DNA of 64,000 bases from Patescibacteria group bacterium (GTDB taxonomy: Bacteria > Patescibacteriota > Minisyncoccia > Phycocordibacterales > UBA918): positions 11,452-75,451 of the forward strand of contig JBBTRC010000010.1 of the NCBI GenBank assembly GCA_038065355.1, read 5' to 3'. The notes beneath the pieces are model-generated. The model saw only the letters and a program-made list of their open reading frames with translations, did not search any database and was not told the origin of the DNA. Of the stretch, positions 16,701-64,000 are shown piece by piece. How positions within the stretch are numbered: the first letter of the stretch is position 1; every line of letters begins with the position of its first letter. Both the position numbers and the translations under genes were made by a program.

Positions 16701-18177
16701 CTTCCCAAAACTCACCGCGCGCCACCACCGTCGGTGTCACAATATTTCCAGCTGGGGTAACGAGCTTGCTCGGTGCATAGCTGGCCGCCACGGCGATATA
16801 TGTTTGATTCCAAATTGCCTGAATGCGAAGCGAAGTATCGAGTTGGTGCCAAAAAGTTTTTGGTGTATGGAACCAACTGTGCGCGACGATATGCGCAACA
16901 AAGGGTGTATCGGGGCGTTCTTTGAGGAGCGTACGTACGCCGACCCCGGAAGCACTTTCAAAACAAAACAGGAGGCTGGGAACATTCTTTTCAAAATCCG
17001 CCTGACTGGTCTTCGGGCCAACTTCGTACGACATAACCTCCCCAACTTTCTTGGTGAGTTCGCGAAAGCCCAGAACGTTAAAAAGACTGGTGTATAGGTA
17101 AGGCATAAATTCACCCTGCGGCACTAGGTAGCGTTTGTGCGCGATGTACTGCTTTTTTTGGCCAGCGTCGTAAATCGTAGCTTCTAGCACTGGGTTCGTG
17201 GCCACATCTTCCGCTCGTCCGCTGTCGACGACGACTGCCGTTGAGGTCGGGTAGCGGAAAGAAAAAAACTTAGTGCCAAAGGTCGCGTCTTCCCGCTGAC
17301 TAAAGTAGCGCGTGTCTTCAGGCAAAAGTATGTAGTCGGCACCGCTCCCTACCGCCGCCGTGACCGCTTCTTCGAGGACCGTCGAGAGGGTATCTGCCTC
17401 CGATCGCTCAAACAGTCGCGCAATCGGATAGTCTGTGTGCACCAACGCGACTTTGTGCGCTGTCTCCGGCGTCGCTGGCTCGGCGACCACTAGGTGCGCT
17501 GAAAGTACGAGCACGAGTGCCGCCACGATTACACCCACACGAAAAGCCAGACCTCTCATCCATACGAGAAGAAGTACAACGGCGAAGAGTGCGGCCAGAT
17601 ACGAAAGTCCGTACACGCCGGCCAACCGCGCTCCCTCTGCCAGTAGTCCGTGTTCGGCGAGCAAGTTGCCCACGTAGCCGAGACTAAAGTACGCGTTTGG
17701 CGAGGCGCCTGGGCCAAACGTCCCCACCGAAAGTACGAGCGAGCCGACCACTTCACCAGCCAGCCAGAATAAAGGCACTACAAAAACGGACGCCACGTAC
17801 GAAATGGGTGCGATACGTTTCCAAGCGTACGCCAATCCACCACACACCACTCCCCCGCATCCCAAAAAGAACGCAACCGTGAACCAGTAGAGAAATATGA
17901 GCGCCAGTTTGCCTTGACCAAAATCAAACGGGAGCCAATCCATCGGGTACATGCTCCAGTAGAAACTAAGTACAAATAGATACTTTATCGTCCAGGCCAG
18001 GAGTGAACCGAGGAGCACTACTCGCCATGTTTTTGAGTGGTAGACAGTATAAATATGCAGTGCGATTCCAACGATTCCAACGAGCCACAGCTCTGGAACT
18101 ACAAACGGCACGCCGAGCAATATGCCGACCGTGACCCAGTTCTTAACGTGTGCGAATGATGTCATGGTAGAGCACAA
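16672..18177 (-). CDS. lnt: apolipoprotein N-acyltransferase-like (polytopic membrane + CN-hydrolase domain)
   Basis: about 6 N-terminal TM helices followed by a nitrilase/CN-hydrolase-like domain (ALVHTDYP... ADYILLPED). Confidence 0.55.
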   Translation of the reverse strand: MCSTMTSFAHVKNWVTVGILLGVPFVVPELWLVGIVGIALHIYTVYHSKTWRVVLLGSLLAWTIKYLFVLSFYWSMYPMDWLPFDFGQGKLALIFLYWFTVAFFLGCGGVVCGGLAYAWKRIAPISYVASVFVVPLFWLAGEVVGSLVLSVGTFGPGASPNAYFSLGYVGNLLAEHGLLAEGARLAGVYGLSYLAALFAVVLLLVWMRGLAFRVGVIVAALVLVLSAHLVVAEPATPETAHKVALVHTDYPIARLFERSEADTLSTVLEEAVTAAVGSGADYILLPEDTRYFSQREDATFGTKFFSFRYPTSTAVVVDSGRAEDVATNPVLEATIYDAGQKKQYIAHKRYLVPQGEFMPYLYTSLFNVLGFRELTKKVGEVMSYEVGPKTSQADFEKNVPSLLFCFESASGVGVRTLLKERPDTPFVAHIVAHSWFHTPKTFWHQLDTSLRIQAIWNQTYIAVAASYAPSKLVTPAGNIVTPTVVARGEFWEVTEVLVPRR

Positions 18178-18613
18178 TTCCGGCGGCCACCGAGACGTTG
18201 AGCGACTCTTTTTGGCCGAGCATCGGAATATCTACTATTGTATCAACAAGGGCGAGTGCCTCCTCGGGGACACCTGTAACCTCGTTGCCGACAATGTATG
18301 CCACATCGTTCGGCGCGACAAAGTCAGAAAGAGAAAGACTGCGGGAAGATTGCTCAAGTGCGACCACGGTCACTCCCTCTCTCTGCAGGATGTGAATCAA
18401 TTCCTCAAGTGAAGAAACGTTCTCCCACGGCACACTCTCACTGGCACCGAGTGACGTTTTTTGGATTTCAGCCTGTACCCGCCCAAAGCGGTCGATGGGC
18501 GCCGGCGTGTACCCGCTTAAAAATACCTTGGACACGCCGGCGCCATCGGCACTACGAAAAATCGCCCCCACGTTGTACGCACTCCGAATATCATGCAGTA
18601 TGATGTATTTCAC
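18143..18613 (-). CDS. SpoU/TrmH-family RNA 2'-O-methyltransferase
   Basis: 156 aa; SPOUT motifs (IILHDIRSAYNVGAIFRSADGAG; YIVGNEVTGV; PMLGQKESLNVSVAAGIVLY). Confidence 0.75.
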   Translation of the reverse strand: MKYIILHDIRSAYNVGAIFRSADGAGVSKVFLSGYTPAPIDRFGRVQAEIQKTSLGASESVPWENVSSLEELIHILQREGVTVVALEQSSRSLSLSDFVAPNDVAYIVGNEVTGVPEEALALVDTIVDIPMLGQKESLNVSVAAGIVLYHDIIRTR

Positions 18614-18692
18614 GGCTGTAGCGTAACATATGCGCGAAAAGAGAAGTTTGATTTCAATTCATTTCGTGTTATAGTTTTTGCCACTTTGTTTT

Positions 18693-18873
18693 ACAAAGTT
18701 ATCCGCCCATAGCTCAGTTGGTAGGTTCGGGAGTATCCCATATTCCCTCACCCCACTTAAGGAGCCCGGTCGACAAAGTACAATTTAATATCCGCCCATG
18801 CTGTATGGTAGCGTGAGCAGTACCCCGCACTCCTCACCCCTTGATTAAGAAGGAGGAACGAACAATTTAATAT
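18693..18873 (+). repeat. two tandem degenerate copies of the tRNA-Lys 5' half plus its promoter-like leader (CAATTTAATAT-CCGCCCAT(A/G)GCT...)
   Basis: copies begin at 18703 and 18792 with CCGCCCATAGCTCAGTTGGTAG / CCGCCCATGCTGTATGGTAG, then diverge; neither has a 3' acceptor strand, so pseudo-tRNA. Confidence 0.5.
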
Positions 18874-18946
18874 CCGCCCATAGCTCAGTTGGTAGAGCGG
18901 CTCCCTTTTAAGGAGAAGGTCCCAGGTTCGAGCCCTGGTGGGCGGA
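18874..18946 (+). tRNA. tRNA-Lys (anticodon UUU)
   Basis: cloverleaf: acceptor CCGCCCA/TGGGCGG, D-stem GCTC/GAGC, anticodon loop CUUUUAA, T-loop TTCGAGC, discriminator A; CCA not encoded. Confidence 0.8.
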
Positions 18947-18994
18947 CAAAACATAGTTCACAACCATGCCATATACATCGGCTGATGGTAGGAT

Positions 18995-19516
18995 TTGATG
19001 GTGTCTAAACTAATTATTATTCGAGGAAATTCGGGTTCAGGTAAAAGCACTATCGCAAAAGCTGTACGCGAGCGAATTAACGAAAAAACCGCATTGGTAG
19101 AGCAAGACTATCTACGCAGATCAGTCCTTGGAGTGACTGGTAAAAGTGGGGACGACATTATCATGCTCATCGATCAGGTAGTACGTTTCTCCCTGGATCG
19201 TGGGTATGTCACAATCTTGGAAGGTATTCTACCTAAAGAATATTACGGCGAAATGTTGCTTCGTCTTGTTAATTACGCAGATAAGAGTTATGTGTTCTAT
19301 CTAGATATTCCAATCGAAGAAACTTTAGTGAGACACCAAACAAAACCTAACAGTCACGAATTCGGTGAAACCGAAATTCGAGACTGGTTCCGAGACAAAG
19401 ATTATCTTGGCATCGAGAATGAGGTCATAATCGACAGCTCGTCAACAATTCAAAATTCGGTTGAGACAACTTTGAGTAATCTTGGCGTTCCGACCATCAA
19501 AAGTCGCGCTTGTTAA
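18995..19516 (+). CDS. P-loop kinase (AAA_33/TmrB/zeta-toxin-like small kinase)
   Basis: GNSGSGKST Walker A near N-terminus, 173 aa; about 42% GC versus about 55% surroundings (horizontally acquired). Confidence 0.55.
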   Translation: MMVSKLIIIRGNSGSGKSTIAKAVRERINEKTALVEQDYLRRSVLGVTGKSGDDIIMLIDQVVRFSLDRGYVTILEGILPKEYYGEMLLRLVNYADKSYVFYLDIPIEETLVRHQTKPNSHEFGETEIRDWFRDKDYLGIENEVIIDSSSTIQNSVETTLSNLGVPTIKSRAC

Positions 19517-19530
19517 GAGAAATTTCCTTA

Positions 19531-20031
19531 TCACCACGGGCACTCAGTAGTCTCGGTACCTGGCACAATGCCCTGTCTGCCCCATACGAGTGCGTGATGT
19601 GACCAAAATTCACGACTCTTTTCCGGCATGACGTTGCCGCCCGGAAAGGAAGGTACCAACCGACCAATATAGGCAGTGTAAAGGAGATACGTCCCATCTT
19701 CTTGTTTTTTTAATTCAATCGTAATGTACGTGGTTGGTTCTGGCCGCCTGTCTTTTACGAATCGACTGTAACGGTCGCGAAACGGCCGTAACGCGTAGAC
19801 AATTTCGTCAGCTGAAGTTGTTTCGACCAAATCTGTCTCTCCGACAATTTGTCCCATATCCACTTCAAACCGAATATTTTGTGCGCTCACGTCAGTCATC
19901 TGTAACGCTTCCTTCACTAGCCCAAGGAGAGACGGTGTCGAGGCAAAGTGCGTCGCGGCATGCGAGTGTTCTGAGTCGTACACGACATTGAAACCATTTT
20001 TTGTTTTTGCGAGAAAAATTTCTTCCGTCAT
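19531..20031 (-). CDS. hypothetical protein (166 aa)
   Basis: long ORF, no recognisable motif; slightly low GC; convergent with the kinase gene. Confidence 0.35.
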   Translation of the reverse strand: MTEEIFLAKTKNGFNVVYDSEHSHAATHFASTPSLLGLVKEALQMTDVSAQNIRFEVDMGQIVGETDLVETTSADEIVYALRPFRDRYSRFVKDRRPEPTTYITIELKKQEDGTYLLYTAYIGRLVPSFPGGNVMPEKSREFWSHHALVWGRQGIVPGTETTECPW

Positions 20032-20033
20032 AT

Positions 20034-20750
20034 CTAAGTTTTCCCTTTGCCGCTAAAAATGCCGTCGCGGATGACGTTGCCGAGGATACCGATAAGGACG
20101 CCAAAGACGCTCAAGCCGACCACTCGGGCAAAAATGTAGATGAATTGCCCGCCCTCTGTCGAAGGGTACGGGAGATTATTGTCTTCAATAAAAACTCGAA
20201 ATGCCCACAACATACCCTCGGGGATGCTGATAAATACTTCTGTATCACCCTCAACGATATAAATGAGTACACCGACGAGTAGCATAGAGCCGACGAGTAC
20301 AACCAGAAAAAGAAGAATATTGATGGTGTAAAACGAGAGTCGCTCATCTTGGTCACTCCCCTTAATGCTACGCATTTTGGTGACACGAAGGAGCCGCAAT
20401 AAGCGGATCATGCGGACGATGCGCGCCGCTTTGAGAAATGTCCAGTTTCCCAAGCCAAGGTAGGTAGGTAGGATGGAAGCGAGGTCAATCAAACCAAACC
20501 AGCCAAACATGTACGACAGTCGCCTTGGTACCACGAGTACGCGGAGCACGTATTCGAGGCTAAACACGCCGACTGAAATCCACTCAATTGCATTAAATAT
20601 TTCGTGGTAATTTTGCAAGCTCGGTACGGTCTCAAGCACAATACTTACAACCGAAATGAAGGTCGTGAGCGCCAAGAAGTCGCTGACGAGAAAGTAGTAT
20701 CGGTGGTGCGGCTCGGTCAAGACGGCGCGTAAAAAGTACAAGGCAGGCAT
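20034..20750 (-). CDS. voltage-gated ion channel superfamily protein (single 6TM domain)
   Basis: S4 voltage-sensor with Arg every third residue (RIVRMIRLLRLLRVTKMR), pore loop IPEGMLWAF (E...W, no GYG) resembling Na/Ca-selective filters. Confidence 0.6.
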   Translation of the reverse strand: MPALYFLRAVLTEPHHRYYFLVSDFLALTTFISVVSIVLETVPSLQNYHEIFNAIEWISVGVFSLEYVLRVLVVPRRLSYMFGWFGLIDLASILPTYLGLGNWTFLKAARIVRMIRLLRLLRVTKMRSIKGSDQDERLSFYTINILLFLVVLVGSMLLVGVLIYIVEGDTEVFISIPEGMLWAFRVFIEDNNLPYPSTEGGQFIYIFARVVGLSVFGVLIGILGNVIRDGIFSGKGKT

Positions 20751-24000: not shown

Positions 24001-24603
24001 ATGCAAACCGCTCATGTCATTCTGAAGAGCATTTCTCCGCTTTTGCTCAATCCGATGACCGACGAGACGCTTGATGAGCTTTTCGCCGGCTCCGGAGCAC
24101 GCAAATTGCGGAAGACTGACGTTACGCAGGAAGCAGTCGCCGCCAAGAAGGTCATCCGCGACGATGACGGCAACATCGGCCTGCCGGTCGAATACCTCTT
24201 CGCCGCCTTGGTGAACGCCGGTCGCTTCGTGAAGTTTGATTCCAAAAAGAACTTCACCAACGCAACGTCATCGCTGGTGCCCGGCCTGCTTACGCTCGGC
24301 GAAATGTTCTACCCGTTCAAAGATCAGAAAACGCCCTGGACGATCGACAAACGCCGCGGCCGTCTGGCCTCAACCGGTGTCGCCGTCGCCATCATTCGTC
24401 CCAAGTTCAAAGATTGGGCGATTGACCTCACGGCAGAATTCGACGAGGCGCAGGTGAGCGAATCGAAGATTCGCGAACTTTTCAACGCGGCCGGTCGCTT
24501 TTCCGGCCTCGGCGATTTTCGGCCAGCGTGCAAGGGTCCGTTTGGGCGCTTTACGATCGACAGCTGGGAAGTCGTCAAGTCAGAAGTTCGTGAAGCCGCC
24601 TGA
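24001..24603 (+). CDS. hypothetical protein with RAMP-like glycine-rich loop (200 aa)
   Basis: strong SD; C-terminal GRFSGLGDFRPACKGPFGRFTI resembles the G-rich loop (GxGxxxxxGhG + beta-strand) of Cas5/Cas6/Cas7 RAMPs; N-terminal SPLLLN strand. Confidence 0.5.
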   Translation: MQTAHVILKSISPLLLNPMTDETLDELFAGSGARKLRKTDVTQEAVAAKKVIRDDDGNIGLPVEYLFAALVNAGRFVKFDSKKNFTNATSSLVPGLLTLGEMFYPFKDQKTPWTIDKRRGRLASTGVAVAIIRPKFKDWAIDLTAEFDEAQVSESKIRELFNAAGRFSGLGDFRPACKGPFGRFTIDSWEVVKSEVREAA

Positions 24604-37764: not shown

Positions 37765-38051
37765 AGGAGCGCTTCTGGCGCCGACGAACCGAGTCGTTCC
37801 TTTAACACGTTCAGGATGGCTTTTTTGTGGAGAAAGATTTCTGACTTCATCACACTCGGCACCTGAATACTAACTGTCTTGGTGGCAACTGTGTACGAGA
37901 TAGCCTCGGCAGAGATGTCAAACGTGGTGACTTCCTTTATCGCAATGGCGCACTCTCTTTCAACGGTCGCCTGGGGTGGTTTTAAGCGTTTGCGATAGCT
38001 TTCAAACAAATCGCCCACCTTTTTAATCCGTATGTCAGGTGGTTTCCTCAT
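37761..38051 (-). CDS. small protein downstream of dnaN (DUF721-like?)
   Basis: 96 aa, position equivalent to the yaaA/DUF721 slot after dnaN; weak assignment. Confidence 0.3.
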   Translation of the reverse strand: MRKPPDIRIKKVGDLFESYRKRLKPPQATVERECAIAIKEVTTFDISAEAISYTVATKTVSIQVPSVMKSEIFLHKKAILNVLKERLGSSAPEALL

Positions 38052-38053
38052 GC

Positions 38054-39148
38054 CTACTTGTTCATGGGCATCACCAAATAGCGAAGAGATTTATCGGTGG
38101 CACCTTCCATTACCATGGCTCGCCCAAGACCGGCAAAACTAAGCTTTACCGAATCATCAAACACATGGGTGAGTGGATCCATAATGTACTGTTGGTTGAA
38201 ATTGAGCCTAAGCTCTTCACCGGTCACGTCGGCTTTAATAGTGTCGGTGATATGGCCAACGTCATTATTTTGTGAGGAGATAGTGAGTGAGTTCGTGGTT
38301 ACTAAAAGCGACACTTGGCGAAACTTATTCAAGAATATTGAGGTTTTTTTGAACGAACGGAGAAGGTCGTCTTTGAGCACAACCACATGTGACACGTACT
38401 CTTTGGGAATAATCTGCGCGTAGTCAGGAAAACTTCCCGTCACCAGTCGAGAAGAAATGTATATGCCGTTTGTGAATTCGATGGCGCACTGGTTCTCGCT
38501 CACCGTACAGACAGGGTCACCTTCGGCGACCTCGCATACGCGAGCGAGCTCGAGAGCGTTTTTTTGCGGAATCATGACGGATTGCTCAAGAATAAAACCT
38601 TTTTGGGGAACCGTCTTTTCCATCAAACGGAACGAGTCGGTCGCCACAAAGGTGAGAGAGTGCTCTTTCTTCTGCTGAATGAAAACGCTTCCGAGCTCTG
38701 GTTTAATTGAGGTGAGTGAAGCGGCGAACGCCACACTTTTAATGCCGAGTGCGAACATGTTCGCTTGAATTGTCCCGCCGGTTTTTTTGAGTTTATTAAA
38801 TTTTGGAAACTCGTCAACTGAAAAAAGTTTAATGGAAGTATTTGTTGAGGCGGTCTCTATTTGGAGAGTTTGGTCTTCGGTACGGAGGGTGATTTGTGGT
38901 TGATTAATGTATTGAATACTTTGAAGAAATGTCTGTGTAGGGACAGCAATAATTCCTTCCTCGCTCACCTTCGCAGTAATACTTAATTCAACACTCACCT
39001 CTAAATTTGTAGCCTGAAGAATAATTTTACCTTTTACCGCTTCGAGCCGAACACATTGTAAAACTGGTAAGGTGACGTGACGAACACTAATTCGACTAAG
39101 GAGCTCAAGTTGTTTAAGTAGTTCGCTGTGAGTAATTGTTATTTCCAT
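38054..39148 (-). CDS. dnaN: DNA polymerase III beta sliding clamp
   Basis: 364 aa, three-domain DnaN-like; directly downstream of dnaA. Confidence 0.9.
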   Translation of the reverse strand: MEITITHSELLKQLELLSRISVRHVTLPVLQCVRLEAVKGKIILQATNLEVSVELSITAKVSEEGIIAVPTQTFLQSIQYINQPQITLRTEDQTLQIETASTNTSIKLFSVDEFPKFNKLKKTGGTIQANMFALGIKSVAFAASLTSIKPELGSVFIQQKKEHSLTFVATDSFRLMEKTVPQKGFILEQSVMIPQKNALELARVCEVAEGDPVCTVSENQCAIEFTNGIYISSRLVTGSFPDYAQIIPKEYVSHVVVLKDDLLRSFKKTSIFLNKFRQVSLLVTTNSLTISSQNNDVGHITDTIKADVTGEELRLNFNQQYIMDPLTHVFDDSVKLSFAGLGRAMVMEGATDKSLRYLVMPMNK

Positions 39149-39475
39149 ATTTTATTTATACATCATTTTACTCACTATTATTAAGGGTGTGGAGATGTGT
39201 AAAAACCAATTATGTGTCGTATTTTAAAGCTAGATTTCTGGTGATAAATACTCATAAAGTGGTGAAATCCTAGTCTGCCGCACGAACTACTTGGGGGTAA
39301 GGTAGAGGTACTGTTTTTTGTTGGGGAAAAAGTTCTACTGTCCCTCTCCCCACTCCCAGCTACCCAGATTCTTATAAGTCACTCTTTACCACACTACTCA
39401 CCATTCTTTTCCACAGATGGTGAGTAATTTTAAAATGATTGTGGTGTTAAAAAATAATCTCCGGAAATTCGGAGG
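39149..39475. other. candidate oriC (dnaA-dnaN intergenic, AT-rich DUE plus DnaA-box-like 9-mers)
   Basis: AT-rich tract 39150-39185; TTTTCCACA (about 39407) 1 mismatch to TTATCCACA, TTTACCACA and TGTGGAGAT 2 mismatches; dnaA terminator CTCCG-GAAATT-CGGAG at 39459-39474. Confidence 0.4.
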
Positions 39476-40858
39476 TTATTTTAGCAACATTCGCACTTGG
39501 GTGATTTCTTCTTCTAGTTCGGTTGATAATTTTAGTTCCGCTTTAATTTTTTCACACGAGTGAATGACGGTCGTGTGATCTCTTCCTCCTAATTTCTTTC
39601 CGATCGCTGGATACGATACTTGGAAATCTTCTCGCAAGATGTACATAATAATCTGTCGAGGCTTTACCACTTCCTTCCGCCTGGTTTTTTCGTAGATGCT
39701 TGCTTGATCGATGTCATAAAAGCGTGCCACTTTTTCAACCACATCGGAAATAGCCAAAGTTTTCCGCGGCCGAGAGCTGTTTTTGATGATAGTACGTACC
39801 TCATCGATAGAGAGGGTGCGACCAAGGAGTTGCGATTGGCACATAATAGTGTTGAGCGCCCCTTCAAGCTCTCGCACGTTGCCTTCGATGGTGTGGGCGA
39901 GGTGTTCAACCACGTCATCGCTCAGCGTGATGCTGTTTTGGGCTGATTTCGCGCGCAAAATAGCCGCTCGCGACTCCAAGTCGGGCGCGGGCAAATCAAC
40001 AATCATCCCTTGCGCGAACCGTGACTGGAGGCGTTCTTCAAGGCCGGAGAGAAGCGCTGGGTGCACATCGCTTGAGAATACAATTTGCTTGTTGTTATCA
40101 TGAAGCGCGTTGAATAAATGAAACAGCTCTTCCTGGGTTTTTTCTTTTGAAGCCAGAAACTGCACATCGTCCATAACCAACACGTCGTACTGGCGATATT
40201 TATCTTTGAAACTGTTGGCACTACCGTTTTGCAACGCGTTGAAGTAATCAACCGCAAAGCGTTCGCTTGTGACGTAGAACACTTTTTTCCCCGTCTTCTT
40301 AATCTGGTTTCCGACCGCTTGGATCAAGTGAGTCTTACCGTGACCGGTTTTTCCGTAAATAAAGAGTGGGTTGTAGGTAATGCCGGGTTTTTCACTCACC
40401 GTCTTAGCGGCCGCGTGCGCAAGCGCGTTGTAAGGGCCAACTACAAAGTTTTCAAAGGAGTAGCGGGGGTTTAGGTTGTCGCTTTTGTTGATGTAGTAGT
40501 CTTCGAGCGGCAAGGCTGCGTTCACAGTCTGATTTTTGGTTGACTCCTGCTTGCGTTCGTTTCTTTGTACGACCGCGTATTCAACACTGCGAACATATGG
40601 GGTGAGCTCTCGGAGCGTCTTAAGGATCATGGTGTTGAATTTGTCCTGCAGCCAATCCCTTACAAACACACTCGGTACTCCAATAGAGGCTGTTCCATCT
40701 TCGAGTGAGACAATGTGGGTATCTCTAAACCAAGTCTTGAAGTTGGCGGTCGTAATAGCAAGCTCTATTTTGACCAACGCATCGTCCCACAATTGTTTTA
40801 CATCAATTTGTTCAGTCCGAACGATACTGTTAGATATTTGATGTGAGATAGGATTCAT
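39476..40858 (-). CDS. dnaA: chromosomal replication initiator DnaA
   Basis: 460 aa; AAA+ GKTGHGKTHL, sensor motifs, C-terminal DNA-binding signature (RDHTTVIHSCEKI). Confidence 0.95.
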   Translation of the reverse strand: MNPISHQISNSIVRTEQIDVKQLWDDALVKIELAITTANFKTWFRDTHIVSLEDGTASIGVPSVFVRDWLQDKFNTMILKTLRELTPYVRSVEYAVVQRNERKQESTKNQTVNAALPLEDYYINKSDNLNPRYSFENFVVGPYNALAHAAAKTVSEKPGITYNPLFIYGKTGHGKTHLIQAVGNQIKKTGKKVFYVTSERFAVDYFNALQNGSANSFKDKYRQYDVLVMDDVQFLASKEKTQEELFHLFNALHDNNKQIVFSSDVHPALLSGLEERLQSRFAQGMIVDLPAPDLESRAAILRAKSAQNSITLSDDVVEHLAHTIEGNVRELEGALNTIMCQSQLLGRTLSIDEVRTIIKNSSRPRKTLAISDVVEKVARFYDIDQASIYEKTRRKEVVKPRQIIMYILREDFQVSYPAIGKKLGGRDHTTVIHSCEKIKAELKLSTELEEEITQVRMLLK

Positions 40859-41018
40859 ACTTCAGACAACCAGTAATGCAATAGGCGTAACTTGCATTAT
40901 ACTCGTGTCAAAAGAACTGTAAATGTTTTTGGCGTTTTAGGCTATTTCAAAACCATTTTTCAAATTTGAAAATGCAACTGTGCATAACGTGTGCACAACT
41001 ATTCAACCAATGTAGAGA

Positions 41019-41120
41019 GCTCGTTCTCCACTACATATTTTGAGCGTCCGCGGGGGTAAAGTGCTTGTAGTAGTAACCAAACATCGGAGCGTGTGAAAAA
41101 TATGTAGTGGGGAACGAGCG
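41019..41120 (+). repeat. palindromic repeat element family, copy 1 (upstream of dnaA)
   Basis: conserved core ACATATTTTGAGCGTCCGCGGGGGTA..AACCAAACATCGGAGCGTGTGAAAAATATGT flanked by copy-specific inverted arms GCTCGTTCTCCACT / AGTGGGGAACGAGC. Confidence 0.6.
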
Positions 41121-41181
41121 TCGAGTATTCCCATTGAATATTTTACATAATCATGTATAGTTGCGCGGTAATCTACAACCT

Positions 41182-41331
41182 ATGCCAAAACGAACCTACC
41201 AACCAAGCAAGCGCAAGCGAGCCACTACCCACGGTTTTCTCGTACGGTCACAGACCACGAGCGGTGCCAAGGTGCTCCGCGCCCGTCGCCGCAAAGGTCG
41301 CGCACGATTAACGGTTAAAAAAGCTCGCTAA
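41182..41331 (+). CDS. rpmH: 50S ribosomal protein L34
   Basis: 49 aa [25 protein letters not shown]...; below ORF-track size cutoff; classic rpmH-rnpA-yidC order. Confidence 0.85.
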
Positions 41332-41363
41332 GAGCTTTTTTTGATTGTTATACTAGAGTATCT

Positions 41364-41696
41364 ATGCTCAAAAAAAGTGAACGTGTAGGCCGTAAGGACT
41401 TCAGCGTCTTTTTTAAGTCTGGCCGCCGCTTCCAGTCCCCCCACACGACTATCATCTACACTCCCCACCCGACATTGGCTGGTTCGGTCGTGGTGAGCAA
41501 GAAGGTGAGCAACAAAGCGGTCGAACGAAACAAACTTCGCCGCCGTGTGTATGACGCACTCCGGCAGACTCTAAAGACGCAAAAGAAAACCGGCGTGTTC
41601 ATTGTGGTTGTAAAGCCATCCATTCGTTCGCTTCCGCGCGCCGAGCAAAGAAGCCACCTGCTCGCGCAAATTGGACAGGTAGTCAAAAGCACGTAA
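41364..41696 (+). CDS. rnpA: RNase P protein component
   Basis: 110 aa basic protein with RNR-like motif region (KLRRRVYDALRQ). Confidence 0.8.
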   Translation: MLKKSERVGRKDFSVFFKSGRRFQSPHTTIIYTPHPTLAGSVVVSKKVSNKAVERNKLRRRVYDALRQTLKTQKKTGVFIVVVKPSIRSLPRAEQRSHLLAQIGQVVKST

Positions 41697-41708
41697 AATA
41701 GGCAAATT

Positions 41709-42440
41709 ATGTTTAGCTTCATCTGGCACACATTTTTCTTTGACCCAATTTACAATATGTTGGTGTTCTTTGTTGACACCTTCCCTCATGGGGATGTTGG
41801 TCTCGCGATTGTCGCTACCGTCCTTTTGGTGAAGCTGGTGCTCTTACCACTTTCGATCAAGGCGCTCCAAACCCAGAAAATCATGCGTGAGATCGAACCG
41901 AAACTGAAAGAGATTCGGGAAACTCACAAAACTGACAAAGAAGCACAGGCAAAAGCCACCATGGCGATTTACAAAGAAGCAAAACTCAATCCCTTTGCGA
42001 GCATCTTTCTCGTTTTCTTGCAGATTCCGATTGTCATTGCATTGTATTACGCGGTGTATAGCGGTAGCGCCGGTATTGCTTTGCCAAACATTAACCCTGC
42101 AATTCTCTACTCGTTTATCCCAGTGCCCGAAGCTGTCTCTATGATCTTCCTGGGCTTGTTTGATATTTCACAAAAAAGCCTTGTGCTCGCGCTCTTGGCC
42201 GGTGTCACACAGTATTTGTACGTGCATCTATCGATGCCCAAATTGCCTCAGAAAAAAGAAGGCGTCACGCCCGACCTCAAGGAAGATTTTATGCGTAACA
42301 TGCAGTTACAGATGAAGTATGTGATGCCAGTAATTATCACCGTCATTGCCTATACCATTTCAGCCACCATCGCGCTGTACTTTTTGGTCAGCAACCTGGC
42401 GGCAATCGCACAGGAGTTTTATATTCGTAAGCATAGATAG
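41709..42440 (+). CDS. yidC: membrane protein insertase YidC/Oxa1 (short form)
   Basis: 243 aa, 5 TM, conserved TM1 positive patch and amphipathic helix (KIMREIEPKLKEIRETHKTD). Confidence 0.85.
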   Translation: MFSFIWHTFFFDPIYNMLVFFVDTFPHGDVGLAIVATVLLVKLVLLPLSIKALQTQKIMREIEPKLKEIRETHKTDKEAQAKATMAIYKEAKLNPFASIFLVFLQIPIVIALYYAVYSGSAGIALPNINPAILYSFIPVPEAVSMIFLGLFDISQKSLVLALLAGVTQYLYVHLSMPKLPQKKEGVTPDLKEDFMRNMQLQMKYVMPVIITVIAYTISATIALYFLVSNLAAIAQEFYIRKHR

Positions 42441-42449
42441 GGACACCCC

Positions 42450-42545
42450 ACTCCTCACTGTGCATATTTTTCACACGCTCCGATGTTTGGACACCACTAC
42501 AAGCACTGTACCCCCGCGGACGTTCAAAATATGTAATATGAGGTA
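42450..42545 (-). repeat. palindromic repeat element family, copy 2 (minus orientation)
   Basis: reverse complement matches core of copy 1 over about 80 nt; arms CCTCACTGTGC / GTAATATGAGG. Confidence 0.6.
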
Positions 42546-42576
42546 AGGTACCTTTATGGACGCCAACCGTGAAGCT

Positions 42577-42936
42577 TTAAATAGCGAAAGAAGTGAGCGC
42601 TGGGTTGATTTGATTTAAGATCACGACCGACGCGATGATAAGCAAAAGGCCAAGTAGTGCACTTTGAATGTCTTTTTTTGCTTCACTCTTATTACTCACG
42701 ATATCAGTGAGCATCCATTTCACACCGGCCACCACAATTTTCACCACAGCCAAAAAGGCGGCAATGCCAATCACGAGGCTGTAGAGCCAGTTGAGAAAGT
42801 TCACAAACCCTCCGCCGCCCGAGCTGTAGTTGGGAAAATTGAGGATGGTCTGAGCTTGGATCTGTCCCAGCGTCACGAGCGGAGCGGTTAGGATGCAAAA
42901 GACCAGCAAAGGAATAAAAAGTTTCAGGGCACTCAT
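42577..42936 (-). CDS. small membrane protein, possible T4SS pilin (VirB2/TrbC-like)
   Basis: 119 aa, signal peptide plus two hydrophobic helices; first gene of the VirB4-containing cluster. Confidence 0.35.
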   Translation of the reverse strand: MSALKLFIPLLVFCILTAPLVTLGQIQAQTILNFPNYSSGGGGFVNFLNWLYSLVIGIAAFLAVVKIVVAGVKWMLTDIVSNKSEAKKDIQSALLGLLLIIASVVILNQINPALTSFAI

Positions 42937-44165
42937 AGGGATTGTTCGTTAGTTTCTGCTAAGGTGGGTAGCTTATCAGGCAGTGTCAACAACCAAAGCG
43001 AATCATCGTTCTTATTCTGGAAATACAATCGCGAGTCGTCCTTGTAGAGAGACAGGCGTGTGATATCGAGCGCGCGTCCTGATGCAGAGAGAGTGTTCGA
43101 GAGTAGGTCTGTGGACTGATCGGCGACGTTGATGCTCCAGAGTGAATCCGCAAATGAAATAGCACCCTGATACCAGCTGTCGGGTAGGCTGCTTGTAAGC
43201 TCGGTCGAGGTGTCTCGCGCACACAGCATGCGTGTGGCACCACTGGTAAAAATACATTTCTCTGGCAAGACAGGGAGAGAGAGTGGTGAGGTGGTGGTAG
43301 CGTAGACTAGCGTTGAAGAAAAAACAGCATCGGCTTGTTCTGCATACAGAACCGTCGACCCTTCTCCTTCGGCCGTCAACCCAAACCCATCGACTGGAAG
43401 ACGAGTGAGTGTTCCAGCTTCTATTTTATAAAGAAATCCTTCCAGCTCTCTCGTGGCTTTGGGGTAGACGTAGTGAATGCTCTTGGCGGTACTGCCCCAG
43501 TCGATCATCGCTTCTCGAAACGGAATCGTAAAAAGAGTACGCGTGGTCTTTTTGGCAAAGTTGTAAGCTTTTCCAACGACGCTGGAATTTGTTTGTTCAG
43601 CGAAGAGTAGCTCATTATCTTCGGTGGCATGAAGGGACACAACCACACCCTCGATTGGTGTGAGGGCGAGCGACGATTCGGTTTCATTGAGATCAGCGAT
43701 ATACGTTTGTTTTCCACCGGCTTCGTTGGTCTCAATTACCAAGTGCTTTCCGTCAGGCATAATCACCGCAATTTCCGCACCAGGAACGGACGTGCCGGAG
43801 AGTCTGGTTTCTGTTCCGCTCTCAACATCGAGTGCAAAGACATGACCAACGCCGGCTTCAACAAAATACACTTTGGGCGATGAACTACCGGTTGTGACTT
43901 CAGCGTAGCCAGCGACGTGTTTGGTGGTGAGCTGGCGAAGCGCCTTGTCGGAAGACGAGTCGATAACGGTATCTGTGGATCCGTCACCAGCGCCATCTGT
44001 TTCGGTGTCGGTCACGGTGCCGTCGGTCGTGTCACCAAGGTCAAGATCGGCAAACGTATCGCCGGGAGCGGCTTGTTTGTCTGCAAAAAAGAGCAGGTAC
44101 GACCACACGCCAATGAGGAGTAGGATGAGTAGGGCGCCGATGATGATAAGAGTCTTGCGGTTCAT
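42933..44165 (-). CDS. N-terminally anchored secreted protein, beta-propeller-like
   Basis: TM anchor, Asp/Thr/Gly-rich linker, repeated beta-strand blocks reminiscent of TolB-like propellers. Confidence 0.4.
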   Translation of the reverse strand: MNRKTLIIIGALLILLLIGVWSYLLFFADKQAAPGDTFADLDLGDTTDGTVTDTETDGAGDGSTDTVIDSSSDKALRQLTTKHVAGYAEVTTGSSSPKVYFVEAGVGHVFALDVESGTETRLSGTSVPGAEIAVIMPDGKHLVIETNEAGGKQTYIADLNETESSLALTPIEGVVVSLHATEDNELLFAEQTNSSVVGKAYNFAKKTTRTLFTIPFREAMIDWGSTAKSIHYVYPKATRELEGFLYKIEAGTLTRLPVDGFGLTAEGEGSTVLYAEQADAVFSSTLVYATTTSPLSLPVLPEKCIFTSGATRMLCARDTSTELTSSLPDSWYQGAISFADSLWSINVADQSTDLLSNTLSASGRALDITRLSLYKDDSRLYFQNKNDDSLWLLTLPDKLPTLAETNEQSL

Positions 44166-61767: not shown

Positions 61768-62340
61768 TTGTCAAAGGTTCCTAATATTCTCCAATATGAA
61801 CTGTTTCATATTGGAGAAGATCATCGTTCCGAAAGTGACATCGTGAGAGACATTACAAACCGTCTCGTTGAAAACGTTCAACTTCAGCTCGCGGGTGCCC
61901 CAACGGACATTTTTAATGGTCTGAAAACATGTATCCGTGTGTACGATCAGTCGCACTACGTAACTCACCTGGTCGGCATGTACATAAAAATTCAAGAACA
62001 AGCTGAACGATTGTTCTTGAAGTGTCAGGGTGCGGTTGCTCGGAAACATCATCTAAAAGCCTCGGTTACTAGTTGGTACGTTGGCATCGTTCAGCGCCGG
62101 ATGTCACGTTTGCGTGCACGTATACGACGTTACCTTGTGGAGTATCTAAAACAACCAAATGCGGTCTTAAATTCATGTGTGGAGTACGGTGTGCATGAGT
62201 ATCGTCCGATTCATGACGACGAACTGCCGGATATTCGTGCAATCATTCAAAATATAGACGGGCCATACGGGTTGTTTGTGTTCGCTCCAGGTGACTTACG
62301 GAATCCTGATCAAACGTTGCTTGCTCATATAACTCTCTAA
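61768..62340 (+). CDS. hypothetical protein (190 aa), low GC
   Basis: TTG start with SD GAGGAG; about 45% GC; followed by terminator AAAGCCGTGGCAACCGCTGCGGCT-T6. Confidence 0.4.
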   Translation: MSKVPNILQYELFHIGEDHRSESDIVRDITNRLVENVQLQLAGAPTDIFNGLKTCIRVYDQSHYVTHLVGMYIKIQEQAERLFLKCQGAVARKHHLKASVTSWYVGIVQRRMSRLRARIRRYLVEYLKQPNAVLNSCVEYGVHEYRPIHDDELPDIRAIIQNIDGPYGLFVFAPGDLRNPDQTLLAHITL

Positions 62341-62503
62341 AAAGCCGTGGCAACCGCTGCGGCTCATTTTTTGCTGCTCGCCGGCGTCGTCCGAACTTTT
62401 TTCTGTCTAATATATTCGCTCTGCTCGCCACAATACACTTGACATAGTTTGACTTATATAATATTGTAAAAACAGTTTTTCTCTCACCCAAAGGAGGTAA
62501 CAG

Positions 62504-63142
62504 ATGTCTAGAAAACTGCTGGGTGACGGATTATTCCTCATCCAAATTGGCTTTGCGCTCACGTTTGGCACGAGCCAATTCCTACAGATGCTTACTTCTG
62601 CCGAAGGAGTGAGCATGAGTTGGTTTGGATTCTGGCTGATCTTTTTACTACTGAATCTATGGCTCGCTTGGCACGCACACAAAGCAATGCCGAGTCGTGT
62701 AACGTTTCAAACACTTATTGCCTACTCAACGTGGACGATGGTGGTTACGTTGGACGTAAGCGTCATTGTTTTTAAGCAGGCTTGGGTGTGGAACGATCGC
62801 GACACACTCACCGCTTTTATTGCCATTGTTGGCGTACTGGCGACATTGTTTTGGGGTCGATTTGAGTTGACTAATCCACTGGTGAAGGGTTTCATGGCGG
62901 TTTTCTTTAAAGCCATCCCGCAATTCATCTTGGCCTGGAATATTTGGCTTGTCGGCGGTGCAGGGATGTCATGGATAGCGGTAATTGCTGGACACGCAAC
63001 CATTCTTTCACGGATAGGTCAGCTTGTGCTCTCGGTCAAAGAAGCCAGTTGGGACAGAAATCGAACTGGCTCGCTTATAAGCGAAGTCCCGAATGAGATT
63101 AGTTGGATAGCGGTAACGTTGGTCTTGCTACTCAAACTCTAA
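62504..63142 (+). CDS. integral membrane protein (about 6 TM, 212 aa)
   Basis: SD AAAGGAGG; TTGACA/TATAAT-like promoter at about 62439-62468; followed by near-identical terminator AAAGCCGTTGCTCACGCAACGGCTTTT. Confidence 0.45.
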   Translation: MSRKLLGDGLFLIQIGFALTFGTSQFLQMLTSAEGVSMSWFGFWLIFLLLNLWLAWHAHKAMPSRVTFQTLIAYSTWTMVVTLDVSVIVFKQAWVWNDRDTLTAFIAIVGVLATLFWGRFELTNPLVKGFMAVFFKAIPQFILAWNIWLVGGAGMSWIAVIAGHATILSRIGQLVLSVKEASWDRNRTGSLISEVPNEISWIAVTLVLLLKL

Positions 63143-63168
63143 AGCCGTTGCTCACGCAACGGCTTTTA

Positions 63169-63528
63169 CTATTCATCAAACATCACCTCAATGTTATTTC
63201 CGTCCGGATCCAGAATAAAAGCGGCATAATAGTTGGGAGTATAGTCTCGAGGGCCGGGTGCACCGTTATCTTTTCCGCCATTAGCCAATGCCGCCTCATA
63301 GAACGCATCAACAAGTGTTTTGTCGCCTACTCTAAATGCAACATGTATGGGAGCGACTCTGCCCTCACCAGCAAATTGCCAGATTTCAAAAAGGCCACCC
63401 TGCACGTTAAAAGCACAAAATCCTCCCTCTTCAAATGCAATCGTATAGCGGAGCGGCTCGAAGACATGTAGAAAAAAGGTTCGGCTTTTTTCAAAATTTA
63501 GTACGTTTAGGGCAACATGGTCTATCAT
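63169..63528 (-). CDS. VOC/glyoxalase-family protein
   Basis: 119 aa; paired beta-alpha-beta-beta-beta modules (HVALNV..., HVAFRV...). Confidence 0.7.
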   Translation of the reverse strand: MIDHVALNVLNFEKSRTFFLHVFEPLRYTIAFEEGGFCAFNVQGGLFEIWQFAGEGRVAPIHVAFRVGDKTLVDAFYEAALANGGKDNGAPGPRDYTPNYYAAFILDPDGNNIEVMFDE

Positions 63529-63766
63529 ATAAAAAGTATAGCTTGCAGTTAAATAATCGCATAGTTACAGATACACATAAAATTTATAAAGGTACGCGGT
63601 ATTGGAGTGCCTCAAGCACGGGCGGTGCTGTGATGTGTTCACTCGCATCGAGGTCGGCGATGGTGAGAAAGTTCGGGGGATTTTCGCAAGAGGTTGCCAG
63701 CAATTTTGTGACTCAAGGAAACAAAATGGCGTCAACCTGAACAGGTCCTGTAAGGAAGATAGCTGA

Positions 63767-64000
63767 CTATAGTGGAACTCTATACTGAAGCGCTTCCAAA
63801 ACATGATTGACACCAATGTTCTCAGAGTTGTCCAAGTCAGCTATCGTCCGGGCGACTTTGATGAGCCTATGATAGCTACGCGGTGAAAGGTTTAATTTGG
63901 CGCTTGAAACTTTTAATAAGTCTTTCACATCACTATTTAAATGGATGGTAGTTTCTATGTCGCGCGCGGAGAGATTGGCGTTGGTGGAGGGAAGATCCTC
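63767..64000 (-). CDS. comM: Mg-chelatase-like AAA+ protein ComM/YifB, C-terminal fragment (gene runs off window)
   Basis: translated tail ...LSPRSYHRLIKVARTIADLDNSENIGVNHVLEALQYRVPL* matches YifB C-terminus. Confidence 0.6.
   Translation of the reverse strand, partial: EDLPSTNANLSARDIETTIHLNSDVKDLLKVSSAKLNLSPRSYHRLIKVARTIADLDNSENIGVNHVLEALQYRVPL

Follow-up and report, generated by a model that had tools for sequence, protein, structure and literature searches.

A family of tandem units with a tRNA-like head and a covarying hairpin upstream of tRNA-Lys(UUU) in Paceibacterota

The tRNA-Lys(UUU) gene and its upstream units

We analyzed a stretch of 64,000 nucleotides (the window) from a Patescibacteria group bacterium (GenBank assembly GCA_038065355.1, contig JBBTRC010000010.1, positions 11,452 to 75,451 of the forward strand), in which two tandem units, U1 and U2, lie directly upstream of a tRNA-Lys(UUU) gene. 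The tRNA gene (18874–18947, + strand) was identified by ARAGORN as the sole tRNA gene in the window; it is intact, lacks an encoded CCA, and matches Rfam RF00005 with 67.9 bits. An initial annotation had regarded U1 and U2 as degenerate copies of the tRNA 5′ half at a recombination hotspot, next to DNA with the footprint of integrative elements. Our analysis revealed that relatives carry homologous units with a covarying hairpin and a CCCTTNATTAAG box, which contradicts this view.

The locus consists of three head-to-tail units starting at 18703, 18792 and 18874, of which only the third is a complete tRNA; on both points, the starts being confirmed by the repeats, the initial annotation was correct. 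The units in the window are 82–89 bp long and stand in tandem, head to tail, each opening with 8–22 nucleotides (nt) of tRNA sequence. The 22-mer CCGCCCATAGCTCAGTTGGTAG, which forms the first 22 nt of the tRNA, has exactly two occurrences, at 18703 and 18874, whereas the chance expectation is 0. A repeat search showed that 18700–18724 and 18871–18895 are identical at 25/25 positions, and 18775–18799 and 18857–18881 at 23/25. The starts of U1 and U2 are 171 and 82 bp from the tRNA, and these intervals contain no open reading frame (ORF). The sequence from U1 through U2 to the tRNA 5′ end was identical in an independent Logan contig (L001, run ERR3858120), indicating that the array is not an artefact of this assembly.

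Each unit is composed of four parts: (i) the tRNA 5′ acceptor strand with a variably degenerate D region up to GGTAGC, about 22 nt in all and close to the resident tRNA; (ii) a 10-bp hairpin, mostly with a 5-nt C-rich loop (UCCCA, CCCCA or CCCCG); (iii) the near-invariant box CCCTTNATTAAG; and (iv) a segment that varies, then an A/T-rich spacer with the same kind of end as the tRNA leader (..AATAT). Type A units have the form GGTAGC-GTGAACAGTG-TCCCA-CACTATTCAC-CCCTT and are represented in the window by U2, while type B units, represented by U1, have the form GGTAGC-TTGGGAAGCA-CCCCA-TGCTTCCCAA-CCCTT; the order of the two types varies among genomes. The units have no T arm and do not show the cloverleaf of a tRNA or tRNA pseudogene. 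Among the boxes that the units have from the tRNA, GGTAG, with its G18-G19, is the best preserved.

Both units and all of their parts are on the + strand. U1 (18703–18791) scored 66.3 bits (E 2e-11) with the covariance model R1, which was built from 14 units. Its tRNA-identical 5′ segment (18703–18724) is followed by a hairpin at 18726–18750 with the loop TCCCA at 18736–18740, as predicted by RNAfold and aligned with relatives, and by the degenerate box CCCCACTTAAGG at 18751–18762. After the box come a degenerate 3′ acceptor-like sequence, CCGGTCGA, a CAAAG trailer, and a spacer ending in AATAT. U2 (18792–18873; R1 score 74.8 bits, E 4e-13) aligns with the type A units of the related loci L004, L017, L016 and L028. 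It consists of the tRNA-like segment CCGCCCAT...GGTAGC (18792–18812), hairpin arms at 18813–18822 and 18828–18837 around the loop CCCCG, the box CCCTTGATTAAG (18838–18849), which occurs only once in the window, and the spacer ACAATTTAATAT.

According to the initial annotation, both copies keep the acceptor 5′ strand and the D-arm; the first 22 nt of U1 match the tRNA at 22/22 positions, but U2 has only CCGCCCAT and GGTAG in common with it. A 3′ acceptor strand, described there as missing, survives in degenerate form in U1 (CCGGTCGA and the CAAAG trailer). The leader said to precede all three copies, CAATTTAATAT, is present before copies 2 and 3 only, copy 1 sharing TAT alone. Neither is CAATTTAATAT a promoter, so that the proposed duplication of the promoter with the copies falls away: a single conserved promoter was found, upstream of U1.

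This promoter is of the sigma-70 type (TTGATT-16 nt-TG-n-TATAGT; 18648–18675, + strand) and is the only + strand promoter-like site between 18400 and 19200. The arrangement of TTGATT, about 17 nt, and TG-n-TATAGT followed by TTTGCCAC is conserved in 20 related loci, before an array or a bare tRNA. At the predicted 5′ end of the transcript, RNAfold gave a hairpin, ACTTTGT-TTT-ACAAAGT (18683–18699, + strand), and in 19 of the 20 loci, unit-free ones included, a 5–8 bp hairpin of varying sequence was predicted about 7 nt after the −10 box. No terminator-like site was found on the + strand within the array. Since a single promoter lies upstream and no terminator intervenes, we infer that the units form the 5′ leader of the tRNA-Lys precursor. 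Internal promoters, with the TTGATT of the box as −35 and TAATAT as −10 elements, were rejected: they are spaced inconsistently (about 20 nt apart in the window), they would place the start site within the acceptor stem, and none appeared in the promoter scan.

Distribution, hairpin structure and divergence of the units

Related loci were collected in three ways. The divergent SpoU-type methyltransferase next to the tRNA served as an anchor, with which nine GTDB loci were fetched; a DNA pattern derived from the units retrieved 23 metagenome stretches, about 14 of them genuine; and exact-protein look-ups gave eleven further loci. Because this pattern could match only where the box was followed by a tRNA-like start, the conservation of these elements in the loci that it retrieved is partly built in. 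The loci fetched by protein, which are free of this bias, carry the same units.

Units of this family, to which U1 and U2 belong, were found before tRNA-Lys(UUU) in about 20 related Paceibacterota loci, and the number of tandem copies ranges from 0 to 4. Two copies are present in the window and in L004, L013, L023, L024, L028, L042 and L047, and four in L025. Single copies occur in L003, L016, L017, L021, L041, L007, L031 and L005; L007 and L031 each have a deleted remnant besides the full unit, and the divergent unit of L005 was recognized by eye. L002, L008, L010, L043, L045 and L049 have none, and L039 has a remnant only. The conserved gene order of the region is polA, holA, (channel), tRNA-Lys(UUU), spoU, (lnt), murE. 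In L003 the tRNA has the inverse orientation with respect to spoU, and the units are still adjacent to it and oriented as it is.

In about 370 kb searched, including the whole window, R1 found units only directly upstream of tRNA-Lys(UUU) and on the tRNA strand. The units scored 36.9–96.2 bits, and true tRNA-Lys genes 18–29 bits. The one other tRNA available, a tRNA-Ser in L004, has no leader units, and the unit pattern had 0 matches in viral contigs. In Rfam 15, no family matched the units in the window at E<=10 or in 10 other loci at E<=1, all hits being at chance level, and neither RF00005 nor any other Rfam family matched U1 or U2 even at E<=10. One of these chance-level hits was the cyanobacterial Yfr1 (E=3.1, 18811–18846); it is due to ACUCCUCAC, part of the U2 hairpin on its 3′ side and a sequence not conserved in the other units. 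A literature search for tRNA-like or structured RNAs in Parcubacteria, Patescibacteria and the candidate phyla radiation found nothing relevant.

The hairpin was analyzed in a sample of 21 distinct unit sequences. Standard pairs occupied 90.4% of the cells of the 10-bp helix, in contrast to 31–50% when the 3′ partner was slid. Nine of the ten helix pairs have changed on both sides, 0 of 500 shuffles matched the observed score, and RNAalifold independently yielded the same 10-bp helix. The covariation signal was found in type A alone, and independent compensatory events were found in both types. The units show both a helix with compensatory changes and a consistent context and orientation, as a conserved structured RNA motif does.

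Two further candidate features were tried and rejected. An acceptor-like closing helix, which would pair CCGCCC with GGG(U)CGG or GGA(A)CGG, is visible by eye in L003, L004, L021, L047 and U1; in type A it is 63% paired without compensatory change, and RNAalifold does not include it. A coding function as a small peptide does not fit either: two frames of the box contain stop codons, the differences in unit length are not multiples of three, and there is no conserved ORF.

The divergence of the units follows that of their hosts. The SpoU protein is 50–89% identical overall to those of the relatives; where SpoU is 81–89% identical, the units are 89–100% identical, and where SpoU is 50–70% identical, the units are 59–87% identical. 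Since unit identity tracks host divergence, vertical descent under constraint fits better than recent horizontal spread. In 21/21 distinct units the 5′ segment is nearer to the tRNA of its own genome than to the mean of the other genomes' tRNAs. Most type B units match their own tRNA at all of 22 nt and share with it the variants that single lineages have in the D-loop and at positions 1 and 7. The identity tracts reach into the non-tRNA leader, which points to recombination or gene conversion rather than to selection for mimicry alone.

Traces of turnover were seen at several loci. The L039 remnant (L039:2630-2670) is the 3′ part only (CCACCTTTAAACAAGGAACGGTGCACAATCAAATAT), and the remnants upstream of the full unit in L031 and L007 have lost their interior (GCGCC|GTACACAATTAAAT...). 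Copy number is unequal between loci with identical SpoU, being 1 in L041 and 2 in L042, and 1 in L016 and 4 in L025. These differences may be a real polymorphism or the collapse of identical 80-nt repeats in short-read assembly.

The divergent L005 unit has an intact anticodon-loop-like sequence, CCTTTTAAGC, and the 3′ end CTGCGGACAAAC. This suggests that the box derives from the anticodon loop region and that the whole unit derives from a tRNA gene that lost its T arm. A simpler arrangement was found in L012 and L032 (Ga0208979_100369 and Ga0076930_100923), which come from an unrelated high-GC organism. There, a tRNA (GCGCCCGTAGCTCAGCTGGATAGAG...) has a copy of its own first ~45 nt about 45 nt upstream, followed by divergence; this is a different 5′ partial tRNA duplication.

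Interpretation and rival explanations

We hold with considerable confidence that the units represent a conserved family, and neither integration scars nor decay specific to this strain. More specifically, we favor as probable the view that U1 and U2 belong to the leader of the tRNA-Lys precursor as conserved, structured modules of tRNA origin, with the hairpin and box as the selected core and with head and copy number shaped by recombination. The units would have originated in a partial tandem duplication of an ancestral tRNA-Lys gene, with loss of the T arm and gain of a long hairpin between the GGTAG D-loop box and the former anticodon loop, which would now be the box CCCTTNATTAAG. From the position and orientation of the promoter, transcription would run through the array into the tRNA, with the array as the 5′ leader of the precursor. 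Before each module stands the same A/T-rich leader/acceptor junction as before the tRNA, and the machinery of tRNA 5′ maturation could therefore cut module-sized RNAs at these junctions. Covariation and conservation indicate that selection acts on the 10-bp hairpin and the adjacent box. The head matches the resident tRNA, and recombination between the repeats would keep it tRNA-like and shift the copy number. As far as sequence can tell, the modules most likely act as structured RNA, either in cis on the stability or processing of the precursor or as released small RNAs.

Several observations weigh against this interpretation. A large share of the covariation count stems from the split between types A and B, which may be one ancient event per pair, and within each type much of the signal was inherited in common. 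The wobble cells comprise 5 G:U and 11 A:C, the latter mostly the conserved central mismatch of type A, and they do not fix the strand. Beyond the 10-bp hairpin, a second helix has no comparative support, and the C-rich loop is swapped for other loops in L007, L031, L023 and L018. The modules are dispensable, being absent or reduced to a remnant in L002, L010, L039, L043, L045 and L049. The complement of the box, as a possible target, does not occur within the window. Finally, the transcription and processing that the interpretation presumes are predictions made from the sequence, namely from the promoter, the direction of the units and their junctions.

Integration classically targets tRNA genes, and an integration footprint, of which the initial annotation had seen signs, is one rival explanation: the 5′ fragments would be displaced attachment-site remnants, left by integrative elements directed at the 5′ part of tRNA-Lys, and the genes downstream would be island residue. 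The side and orientation of U1 and U2 are compatible with islands that displace a 5′ fragment, the slot 3′ of the tRNA has differing cargo among relatives, and the GC content of the kinase gene in this slot is atypical. In Islander, 159 of 3919 islands displace a 5′ fragment upstream, and our locus resembles such cases in having fragments of the tRNA gene nearby in the same orientation (U1 and U2, upstream on the + strand) and variable cargo beside the tRNA (PMC4383910). It differs from them in that the interval between fragment and tRNA holds neither an integrase nor island DNA of at least 2 kb, the cargo lies on the other side, and a conserved non-tRNA structure follows the fragment. The fragments are 82–171 bp from the tRNA with nothing between. 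None of the three ORFs beside the tRNA has an integrase domain, and the tRNA 3′ end is not repeated, within 3 mismatches, anywhere in the window. No terminator remnant was found downstream. The search for an attR site thus came out negative, and the initial annotation was right to doubt a simple attL/attR pair. Outside their tRNA-like part, moreover, the units are conserved and covary across distant genomes. No viral contig contained a unit, and the tRNA 5′ 22-mers found in viruses lie in unrelated virus-borne tRNA or tRNA-like genes, not in attachment sites. An integration footprint is therefore largely refuted already, and we regard it as the least probable reading of the locus. An array of intact tRNAs that decays in this strain, which had also been considered, is not what the relatives show. 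In contrast, the suggestion that partial tandem duplication and recombination shape the locus is supported by our results.

A selfish, non-functional tandem repeat would be turned over by unequal crossing-over or gene conversion, and its palindrome would be kept by templated (quasi-palindrome) mutation. Copy numbers from 0 to 4, unequal in near-identical strains (L041/L042, L016/L025), are in line with such a repeat, as are the occurrence of remnants and losses, the homogenization of the 5′ segment with the tRNA, and a target search in the window that turned up none. We nevertheless consider it unlikely, since types A and B are each kept, with a near-invariant box and the same helix geometry, across lineages whose SpoU proteins are 54–70% identical, a distance at which neutral intergenic DNA would be randomized. 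In addition, the central mismatch of type A is kept, although templated correction should erase it. The units might also work as DNA, the inverted repeat and the TTGATTAAG-type box being protein sites or a single-strand DNA recombination hairpin. Their role would then be to control the divergent promoters of spoU and tRNA-Lys or to bring about site-specific rearrangement, and we give little credence to either. In favor of such a role, A:C cells exceed G:U cells, so that the + RNA strand folds no better than its complement, the box is partly palindromic (CTTAATTAAG), and at most loci the units lie in the divergent promoter region. However, unlike operator half-sites, the arms vary at 9/10 positions and yet stay complementary; the units lie downstream, not upstream, of the promoter, follow the tRNA in orientation and adjacency where it is inverted relative to spoU (L003), and have no recombinase gene in their neighbourhood. 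Insertion of a miniature non-autonomous mobile element by recombination at the first ~22 nt of tRNA-Lys, mobilized in trans, is very improbable. A circle with a 22–25-nt core would give exactly the observed order of core, insert, core and tRNA, and units of the two types do occur in either order. On the other hand, the divergence of the units follows that of the host, there are no copies at other sites or in viral contigs, and by our reasoning, rather than from data, a circle of ~85 bp is an implausible recombination substrate.

The closest analogue in kind of U1 and U2 is the tyrT operon of E. coli, in which downstream repeats of 178 bp carry the tRNA 3′ end (rtT RNA). In both, repeats that include part of the tRNA sequence stand in tandem within a tRNA operon; those of tyrT are co-transcribed with the tRNA and held to stem from unequal recombination, as is proposed for the present units. 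The tyrT repeats lie downstream and carry the 3′ end, whereas the present units lie upstream and carry the 5′ end. To these differences the present units add the hairpin with its covariation, the conserved box, and conservation over a wide range of Paceibacterota lineages. The Rfam scans gave no match to rtT. The 3′ETS-leuZ of E. coli is a 3′ spacer of a tRNA precursor that acts as an Hfq-dependent sponge and is neither tRNA-derived nor repeated. The modules could resemble it as functional RNAs in a tRNA precursor spacer released by tRNA-processing nucleases, which is our proposal here; they differ in being tRNA-derived, repeated and located in the 5′ leader. Plant mitochondrial t-elements mimic the acceptor and T arms of tRNA. 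Like these partial tRNA mimics within longer transcripts, the units could direct cleavage of the RNase P type, but they keep the 5′ acceptor strand and D-loop box and have neither a T arm nor a supported acceptor helix. The apical loop UCCCA, CCCCA or CCCCG of most units resembles the UCCC motif of the C-rich-loop regulatory RNAs of Firmicutes (PMC2790875). This is a resemblance only, since the loop is not universal in the unit family and no G-rich target was identified. A T-box leader was also considered and rejected, because permissive Rfam scans gave no T-box match and the downstream gene is the tRNA itself.

Bacteria of the candidate phyla radiation have tiny genomes with very little non-coding DNA, and to our knowledge few non-coding RNAs have been described from them. 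In this setting, a repeat family is kept beside one specific tRNA even where the neighbouring protein is only 50–70% identical. Together with the compensatory changes in its hairpin, this points to an RNA element not yet catalogued, or at the least to a new route by which tRNA genes give rise to conserved derivatives. A bolder possibility, which we put forward tentatively and consider doubtful, is that the modules are a new class of functional tRNA-derived RNA in these bacteria, partial mimics of tRNA-Lys(UUU) that are cut from the precursor and act in trans. The mimicry would then reside in the 5′ acceptor strand, the G18-G19 box, the long hairpin and the remodelled anticodon-loop box. Such RNAs might be decoys or regulators of a factor that recognizes tRNA-Lys, with their dose tuned by rapid change of copy number; possible candidates are the adjacent TrmH/RlmB-type methyltransferase, a tRNA-Lys-specific nuclease, or a processing enzyme. 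Our study also cautions that tRNA 5′ fragments beside variable cargo may mimic integration scars. The 20–25-nt repeats probably add to the breaks of short-read assemblies at this locus.

Neighbouring genes and further observations

The gene on the other side of the promoter (18143–18613, − strand; Pfam SpoU_methylase) encodes the SpoU protein used as the anchor, a SPOUT RNA 2′-O-methyltransferase of the RlmB/TrmH subfamily with 156 amino acids and the catalytic domain only. Its scores for NCBIfam RlmB and TrmH are below the cutoffs, and the nearest solved structures are YjfH/RlmB and TrmH. RlmB and TrmH are guanosine 2′-O-methyltransferases, and the target of TrmH is G18. A link between the neighbouring enzyme and the G18-G19 box of the units is therefore suggestive at the level of sequence.

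Downstream of the tRNA, the initial annotation had described a low-GC islet of three genes: a P-loop kinase of about 42% GC, a 166-amino-acid orphan, and a voltage-gated channel. The kinase gene (18995–19516, + strand) belongs to the uncharacterized PRK06762 family (NCBIfam NF005255, 144.8 bits against a cutoff of 140). Its GC content is 41.2%, in the 1st percentile of 500-nt windows, and 38.5% at third codon positions (GC3), and it does look like foreign cargo in a variable slot. It has 752 homologs elsewhere; none was found at this site in about 40 related loci. The gene for the 166-amino-acid conserved hypothetical protein (19531–20031, − strand), which has no Pfam or NCBIfam match, has a GC content of 48.5% and is absent from this site in relatives. 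The protein is not an orphan, as 158 homologs with 44–64% identity were found in addition to its own 100% cluster. Most homologs of these two proteins carry no source name; the few named include metagenome-assembled genomes of Paceibacterota, Patescibacteria and Parcubacteria. The channel gene (20034–20750, − strand) was correctly assigned, with a Pfam Ion_trans match at 2.7e-16, but its GC content (49.0%; GC3 60%) is normal for the genome. It has syntenic homologs in L049 (60% identity) and in L041–L046 (43–44%). As a syntenic neighbour in relatives, in the order holA, channel, tRNA-Lys, it lies outside the islet.

The kinase and 166-amino-acid genes are accessory genes that form a lineage-specific insertion in the variable slot 3′ of the tRNA; of the two, the kinase alone has an atypical composition. 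In L010, L021, L002 and L041 the slot is occupied by unrelated cargo, and in other loci it is empty. Relatives (L024, L005, L017, L045, L043) have a terminator downstream of the tRNA, enclosed in a long inverted repeat of which one arm is made up of the acceptor strand at the tRNA 3′ end and the trailer, for example GAGGGCGGACAAAAAGAAAAACCC...GGGTTTTCTTTTTGTTCGCCCTC. Such a long inverted-repeat terminator is missing from 18948–18994 of the window, and the insertion has replaced it. The kinase gene starts 48 nt after the tRNA, and no terminator-like site was found between them. Judging from this arrangement, the kinase gene is probably read through from the tRNA promoter. The same arrangement was found in two other assemblies of this population, and among the contigs that encode the identical holA it was the only one seen.

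A variant of the tRNA was found before the kinase in another Logan contig of the same population (L038:2637-2710, ERR3858120). Its first 26 nt, last 31 nt and flank are identical to those of the window tRNA (18874–18947), while its anticodon arm differs (GCAGGTCGCTCTTAACGACAAGG) and makes it a tRNA-Lys(CUU). This may be either a k-mer chimera by way of a second tRNA-Lys gene or a strain variant. Elsewhere in the window, the stretches 38001–43000 and 62001–64000 have a low GC content of 0.43–0.48, compared with a mean of 0.51, and are larger than the dip at the kinase. An ORF of 200 amino acids with 57% GC and no Pfam match lies at 24001–24603 (+ strand), divergent from polA.

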